A stretch of DNA of 341 bases, taken from assembly GCF_003334335.1 (NCBI RefSeq), contig NZ_QOWQ01000213.1; one strand, written 5' to 3'. Of the stretch, positions 1 to 341 are shown one piece after another; position 1 is the first letter of the stretch, and the number at the start of each line of letters is the position of its first letter. The notes below the pieces were generated by a model. That model was not told the origin of the DNA. It made no database searches and worked only from the letters and a program-made list of their open reading frames with translations. This DNA is from Escherichia coli. Lineage in GTDB: Bacteria; Pseudomonadota; Gammaproteobacteria; Enterobacterales; Enterobacteriaceae. Both the position numbers and the translations under genes were made by a program.

Positions 1-341
1 AACCAGATTGAAGGCGATCTCGTTAAAACAGTGGGCAAAGCTTTCCCCCGGGACTCCCGTGCACCGGAGCGGTGGCCATCAGGGACCATTACCGTCAGGG
101 TTTATGACGATCAGCCGTTTGACCGGCAGATTGTTATTCCGGCGGTGGCATTCAGTGGCGCTAAGCATGAGAGAGAGCATACTGATATTTACTCCTCATG
201 CCGTCTGATAGTGCGGAAAAACGGTGCTGAAATTTATAACCGTACCGCGCTGGATAATACGCTGATTTACAGTGGCGTTATTGATATGCCTGCCGGTCAC
301 GGTCACATGACACTGGAGTTTTCGGTGTCAGCATGGCTGGT
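1..341 (+). CDS. J: Internal fragment (5' and 3' ends outside the window) of a lambdoid phage tail tip / host-specificity protein J-like gene, covering the C-terminal receptor-binding region
   Basis: Frame 1 (nt 1-3 = first codon) is open for all 113 codons with no stop. Codon choice is typical of E. coli and its phages (CTG Leu, CCG Pro, GGC/GGT Gly, CGT/CGG Arg). The translation aligns gaplessly to my recollection of the lambda J C-terminus (...GDIVKAASAAFPRQRESSVDWPSGTRTVTVTDDHPFDRQIVVLPLTFRGSKRTVSGRTTYSMCYLKVLMNGAVIYDGAANEAVQVFSRIVDMPAGRGN...). Conserved blocks are WPSGT (nt 73-87), DDxPFDRQIV (nt 106-135), YSxC (nt 190-201), NGAxIY (nt 220-237) and DMPAG (nt 283-297). Not verified by any search. 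Confidence 0.8.

Follow-up and report, generated by a model that had tools for sequence, protein, structure and literature searches.

A diverged receptor-binding cassette of the lambda-like tail tip protein J is the majority allele in complete Escherichia coli genomes

The tip of the tail protein J decides which cells are open to a lambdoid phage, and hence how far prophage-borne genes can spread, including those for Shiga toxin on long-tailed Stx phages. A 341-nucleotide stretch of Escherichia coli DNA (the window, by which we mean the whole of the stretch that was analysed) had been read from its letters as the diverged receptor-binding region of a J-like tail tip protein and a candidate host-range variant. 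The locus therefore raises three questions: whether it does encode such a domain, how unusual the domain is among the J proteins of E. coli, and what it is likely to bind.

In a six-frame check, frame 1 of the plus strand was the sole frame open over all 341 bases (113 codons), with several stop codons in each of the five others, and neither a start nor a stop codon lies inside it. No Rfam family scored above threshold over the window (one chance match, at 18.6 bits, fell short of the gathering score of 39), neither strand showed sites resembling promoters or terminators, and the only repeats were short ones at chance level; together with the single open frame, this identifies the window as an in-frame internal piece of one protein-coding gene. 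The K-12 Rac prophage was considered as an origin and rejected, since the window has no counterpart in Rac and ynaA is a tape-measure fragment.

The gene in question is J. A phmmer search of all PDB chain sequences aligned window residues 2-110 with residues 992-1100 of lambda gpJ (8iyk_J, 1132 amino acids; E = 6e-24), within two residues of the interval 990-1100 that had been predicted, and window residues 1-111 with a chain named 'A8 gpJ 713' (9wca; E = 9e-31), while the PHROGs tail-fibre family phrog_2148 matched at E = 4e-68. When the last 290 residues of the full-length J were searched, all of the Pfam model PF12421 (Ig_GpJ_C, the C-terminal receptor-binding domain of tip attachment protein J; model positions 1-135 of 135) was covered by J residues 1027-1157 at E = 1.1e-37, with PF09327 (tail tip fibre) directly upstream at E = 8.7e-23. 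The NCBIfam model NF049904, lambda_TipJ, was satisfied over model positions 1-1163 with 2316.9 bits against a cutoff of 1950, a score that belongs to the 1157-residue protein of a 100%-identical locus in UPEC-245U, the window itself holding only 113 codons. In an AlphaFold2 model of the last 210 residues, pLDDT was 75-95 in the domain, with a mean of 69 and poor values in the shaft, which needs the trimer; the top four Foldseek matches were 9wca, 8xck, 8xcj and 9wcb (E = 7e-19 to 5e-17), which are gpJ fibres, closed and open, from A8 and lambda. From a large protein search came nothing but short fragments of J, each with PF12421, and no further characterised relatives.

What the window encodes is thus the receptor-binding part of a tail-tip protein of the J family, and on this point phmmer, PF12421 and lambda_TipJ agree with the original prediction. 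Over residues 2-111 the protein shares 44.5% identity with lambda J by tblastn (database of 50,697 phage records), or 43% in a MAFFT alignment, so that 55-57% of aligned positions differ, where "roughly half" had been estimated. The scaffold motifs were said to be kept, and so they are: those invariant in all four of the allele groups described below include FP, GT.TV..DD..FDRQ, F.G, NG..I and DMP.G.G..L.F. The features of the window are collected in Table 1.

Table 1. Features of the 341-nucleotide window, in window coordinates; loop and turn orientations are putative.
Feature	Position	Strand	Basis and remarks
Fragment of gene J (central tail fibre / tip attachment protein)	1..341	+	Codons 1017-1129 of 1157, placed by full-length homologues; sole open frame; 100% nucleotide match in gpJ of UPEC-245U
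Linker NQIEGDLVKT (10 residues), from straight central fibre to receptor-binding domain	1..30	+	Alignments; near-identical to the phi330/21 alleles, first 6 residues 100% identical to phi330 and 21
Ig-like C-terminal receptor-binding domain, first 103 of 131 residues	31..341	+	PF12421; Foldseek; final 28 residues, with the fourth receptor-facing loop among them, fall outside the window
Putative receptor-facing loop 1, AFPRDSRAPERWPS	40..81	+	Interstrand loop in AlphaFold model; alignment; equivalent to phi330 loop T918-Y921
Conserved turn DQPFD (in motif DD..FDRQ), probably shaft-facing	109..123	+	D, D, F, D, R and Q invariant in four groups; orientation from strand alternation
Putative receptor-facing hairpin 2, GAKHEREHTD	157..186	+	Alignment; counterpart of phi330 hairpin E953-S962
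Putative receptor-facing loop 3, TALDNT	244..261	+	Loop in model; alignment
Turn PAGH (in motif DMPAGxG), probably shaft-facing	289..300	+	D, M, P, G and G invariant in allele groups

We consider it highly probable that the window represents the variable cassette of gene J in a lambda-like phage or prophage, and codes for the greater part of the Ig-like receptor-binding domain that sits distally on the trimeric central tail fibre. The same nucleotide sequence recurs with 100% identity in five complete E. coli chromosomes, at five places all annotated gpJ. The one examined, in UPEC-245U, is an intact gpJ of 1157 codons (11953-15426 of the examined locus, L004) in a complete lambda-like prophage adjoining prfC, in which the genes run tape measure, M, L, K, I, J, Lom, side tail fibre, assembly protein; in PhiR5_1 as in this prophage, J follows M-L-K-I and precedes lom and the side tail fibre genes (order H-M-L-K-I-J-lom-stf-tfa). 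An intact gene within a complete tail module speaks against the window having come from a decaying, non-functional prophage remnant with no current role in adsorption, and so do the frame that is open throughout and the low dN/dS given below, a sign that the allele has stayed under selection. Defective prophages are common in E. coli, as many as 9 copies of the cassette are found in some genomes, and J fragments are numerous in the protein database, though most of these come from short contigs; origin from such a remnant nevertheless strikes us as very improbable, and it would concern the particular copy only and leave the encoded product unchanged.

How the window differs from its relatives is best seen against phi330. 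The two J proteins are 90-100% identical through most of their length, against 52-70% in residues 1001-1150, and at the nucleotide level identity is 83-100% up to nt 3060, 53-68% over nt 3061-3420, and 86-96% from there through the end of J into lom. The window, at nt 3049-3389 of J, coincides almost exactly with the exchanged segment, and the divergence is therefore that of a discrete exchanged cassette.

Thirteen sampled phages, compared by their identity in the window columns of the alignment, fell into four groups. The group of the window (UPEC-245U, PhiR5_1, PhiR46_1 and PhiR47_1; 89-99% identity among members) is one for which no receptor was found. The phi330/21 group (phi330, YYZ-2008, PhiR30_1, 21 and Stx1_132418) is 57-62% identical to the window and binds OmpC in the cases of phi330 and A8; lambda, alone in its group, is 43% identical and binds LamB; and the group of 434, PhiR63_1 and cdtI is 42-43% identical, with OmpC as the receptor of 434. 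Judged by sequence, the window belongs to an allele group of its own, separate from the LamB allele of lambda and from the two groups that bind OmpC. The closest characterised relatives are A8, phi330, PhiR30_1 and YYZ-2008 (9wca, 9wcb; PMC12502783), which share 58% identity in the window and have an upstream fibre shaft and a C-terminal tail (SISDLLVVVMKK.TAGISIS) nearly identical to those of the window's allele. The window is not a member of this OmpC-specific group: it lacks the phi330 hairpin ENFNSNNQQS (E953-S962), in whose place stands a hairpin 2 shorter by 6 residues, and its loop 1 exceeds that of phi330 by 4 residues. Nor does it belong with 434, with which it shares the domain family and framework motifs, since identity is 42%, loop lengths differ, all receptor-facing loops being longer in 434, and the C-terminal tail is different.

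Within the domain, divergence is graded. Strands were taken from the AlphaFold model, and loops and turns were assigned to the top or bottom of the beta-sandwich by the alternation of strands in this monomer model; the orientation was anchored on the phi330 loops predicted to face OmpC (TSTY, ENFNSNNQQS and ANNWTP). On this division, the putative receptor-facing loops are 17-37% identical to those of the other groups, the strands 41-62% and the putative shaft-facing turns 64-91%, and the positions invariant in all groups number 3 of 30, 18 of 66 and 7 of 11, respectively. If the model has the loops the right way up, this is the pattern expected of a domain that retains its frame and the link to the shaft while exchanging its receptor contacts.

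Variation inside the window's group is concentrated as well, with most amino-acid changes in hairpin 2 (157-186; HEREHTD, HEQDHTD or HERENSD) and at 289-306 (AGHGHM or AGSGVM). The variant forms at these two sites occur in phages propagated on ECOR13, not on E. coli C. Within-group dN/dS is 0.12-0.16 with dS reaching 0.44, from which it follows that the allele is old and under purifying selection, and it is accordingly a conserved, working allele. Phages with the window's allele have been propagated on E. coli C (PhiR5_1, PhiR55_1) or isolated as temperate coliphages (Lambda_2G7b, LR595866).

The allele is also a common one. Megablast matches covering at least 80% of the query were counted in 5,426 complete E. 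coli genomes, a RefSeq set enriched for pathogens, which may inflate the figures. The window's cassette was found in 3,352 of these genomes (62%) at 7,328 places, 30 of them on plasmids, with a median of 2 per genome and a maximum of 9, so that many co-resident lambdoid prophages share one tip allele. Equivalent segments of the phage records (L007:3476-3817, L009:3383-3724, L005:4476-4841 and L006:6748-7089) served as queries for comparison. The cassette of lambda occurred in 96-98 genomes, all matches being at least 99% identical, and that of 434 in 2,093; the counts for phi330 (2,412 genomes) and 21 (2,414 genomes) each include cross-matches of 60-80% to the sub-group of the other. The window therefore carries the majority allele in E. 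coli, and it is the model phage lambda that carries a rare one. As a host-range variant, then, the window stands as diverged from lambda and falls as something unusual. The divergence is already in print for Lambda_2G7b, whose domain has the same protein sequence.

What such a domain might bind has to be approached through its relatives. Lambda J binds LamB (PMC11101478); 434 is cited as binding OmpC; and phi330 fails to plate on the Keio ompC deletion, plating being restored by complementation, while its hairpin E953-S962 was predicted by the authors to enter the OmpC barrel (PMC12502783). The A8 gpJ domain is almost identical to that of phi330, and the structure 9wcb is titled 'Open state of A8 gpJ 713 central tail fiber with OmpC G17 from E. 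coli EDL933'. The main receptors found for the domain family (LamB, OmpC and, for evolved lambda, OmpF) are all trimeric porins, and because every relative with a known main receptor uses one, the receptor of the window's allele is, by analogy, probably a trimeric porin as well. On the model of lambda gpJ with LamB and A8 gpJ with OmpC, three copies of the domain would present their loops at the tail tip, the loops would enter a trimeric outer-membrane porin at its extracellular mouth, binding would spread the three domains apart, and the change would run up the fibre and open the tail tip for DNA ejection (mechanism in PMC11101478).

It might be asked whether the allele instead binds a non-porin or a receptor new to the domain family, such as a TonB-dependent transporter, OmpA, Tsx or a glycan. 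The J protein of Gifsy-1 is reported to bind OmpX and BtuB besides OmpC, the receptor-facing loops of the window are unlike those of any characterised allele, and in the literature searched, which was limited in extent, no receptor is assigned to the window's allele group. A review of STEC phages gives only BamA, plus unconfirmed FadL/LamB, for short-tailed phages, and a 2025 paper on EHEC phages describes the receptors of such phages as often uncharacterised. The domain forms a tip with three-fold symmetry, however, and all the main receptors known for it are trimeric porins; we regard a receptor of this other kind as quite unlikely.

The other reading to be weighed is that the allele still binds LamB and that its divergence reflects drift or adaptation to LamB variants, with no switch of receptor. 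With lambda gpJ (P03749; 8xck closed, 8xcj LamB-bound) the window shares the gene, the position within it, the Pfam domain and the predicted fold, with the shaft-facing motifs conserved; loop 1 and hairpin 2 are exactly of lambda length, unlike those of both OmpC-binding groups, and the framework FPR...WPSGT around loop 1 is common to the window and lambda only. Yet identity to lambda, 43-44.5% overall, drops to about 33% where the loops putatively face the receptor, the C-terminal tails are unlike, the sequence is nearer to the OmpC-binding phi330/21 group (58-62%), and the window is not a member of the LamB-specific allele represented by lambda, HK629 and O276, being unmatched by megablast with the lambda cassette. 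The residues at the positions that we take to be lambda host-range sites differ in every case that falls within the window: S1012 aligns within loop 1 to P, T1040 to A, and V1077 to T87 of the window, in loop 3, while the presumed sites H1104, D1107 and L1127 fall past the 3′ end. In the alignment, the wild-type residues of these presumed sites agree with the lambda sequence at those positions, which supports the numbering. Continued use of LamB is thus, in our judgement, unlikely.

HK97, which we take to be a LamB-dependent phage, offers a side view of the same matter. Compared with the window's J in bins of 50 residues, its J (L008 3142-7032) shows 14-54% identity, and HK97 is absent among the best 40 of the 243 records returned by tblastn for the window's domain; if HK97 does use LamB with so divergent a J, LamB use need not require the window's domain family.

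Within a probable porin receptor, the leading single candidate by analogy is OmpC, since the nearest characterised group uses it. This is a weak guess, to which we would give somewhat less than an even chance, because the phi330 hairpin is missing and the loop lengths are lambda-like, and these same two features keep LamB and OmpF in play. Loop length was rejected as a decisive predictor of the receptor: the loops of 434 and phi330 are unrelated, yet OmpC is the receptor of both. It is conceivable, though on the whole doubtful, that the allele uses a receptor new to the domain family or an OmpC allelic group other than that of A8 and phi330; a porin other than OmpC and LamB we rate below OmpC but above LamB. 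The 'G17' in the 9wcb title may mean that OmpC alleles have been grouped, and the paper behind the A8 gpJ structures (9wca, closed, and 9wcb, open with OmpC; 2026 release) may already treat the window's allele. If differences among OmpC alleles are indeed what the cassettes distinguish, the diversity of J cassettes would track porin polymorphism and would govern the exchange of lambdoid phages among E. coli lineages, long-tailed Stx phages included. The warning that adsorption specificity should not be assumed to be lambda-like was a sound one, the nearest characterised groups (phi330, A8) being users of OmpC; by tblastn and alignment, the window is neither lambda's LamB allele nor near-identical to any allele with an established receptor.

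The window's allele is already represented in a number of known phages. Its protein is 100% identical to that of many Stx2a-converting phages and of Lambda_2G7b and 99% identical to that of the PPompW phages and PhiR5_1, and Lambda_2G7b, Stx2a_WGPS2, VT1-Sakai (Sp15), PPompW, PhiR5_1 and P-EibA all carry the same J allele at 99-100% protein identity over the window. The same-allele phage records differ from it by only 3-5 nucleotides, synonymous save for one residue change in some (98.5% nucleotide identity for VT1-Sakai), and carry the annotation host specificity protein J or tail fibre. The allele is therefore already known: it has been deposited and annotated, its divergence from lambda has been discussed in print, and the sequence itself adds nothing new. 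Ordinary as the feature is, the commonest J receptor-binding cassette of E. coli, often present in several prophages of one genome, is one for which no receptor assignment was found in the literature searched, and it appears to be a useful lead for that reason.

Two minor observations concern the neighbourhood of J and its annotation. Downstream of the side tail fibre genes, the UPEC-245U prophage carries a gene with a YadA C-terminal domain (19098-20201 of L004; Eib-like, of the immunoglobulin-binding type), and the partial record of phage P-EibA, named for the immunoglobulin-binding EibA, holds a J fragment whose protein is 100% identical to the part of the window that it covers. In two phages J is annotated as two pieces, split near the 5′ end in phi330 (L002 17195-17545 and 17482-20610) and inside the receptor-binding domain in D2 (L017 1-904 and 912-1121), both probably the result of frameshifts or sequencing errors.
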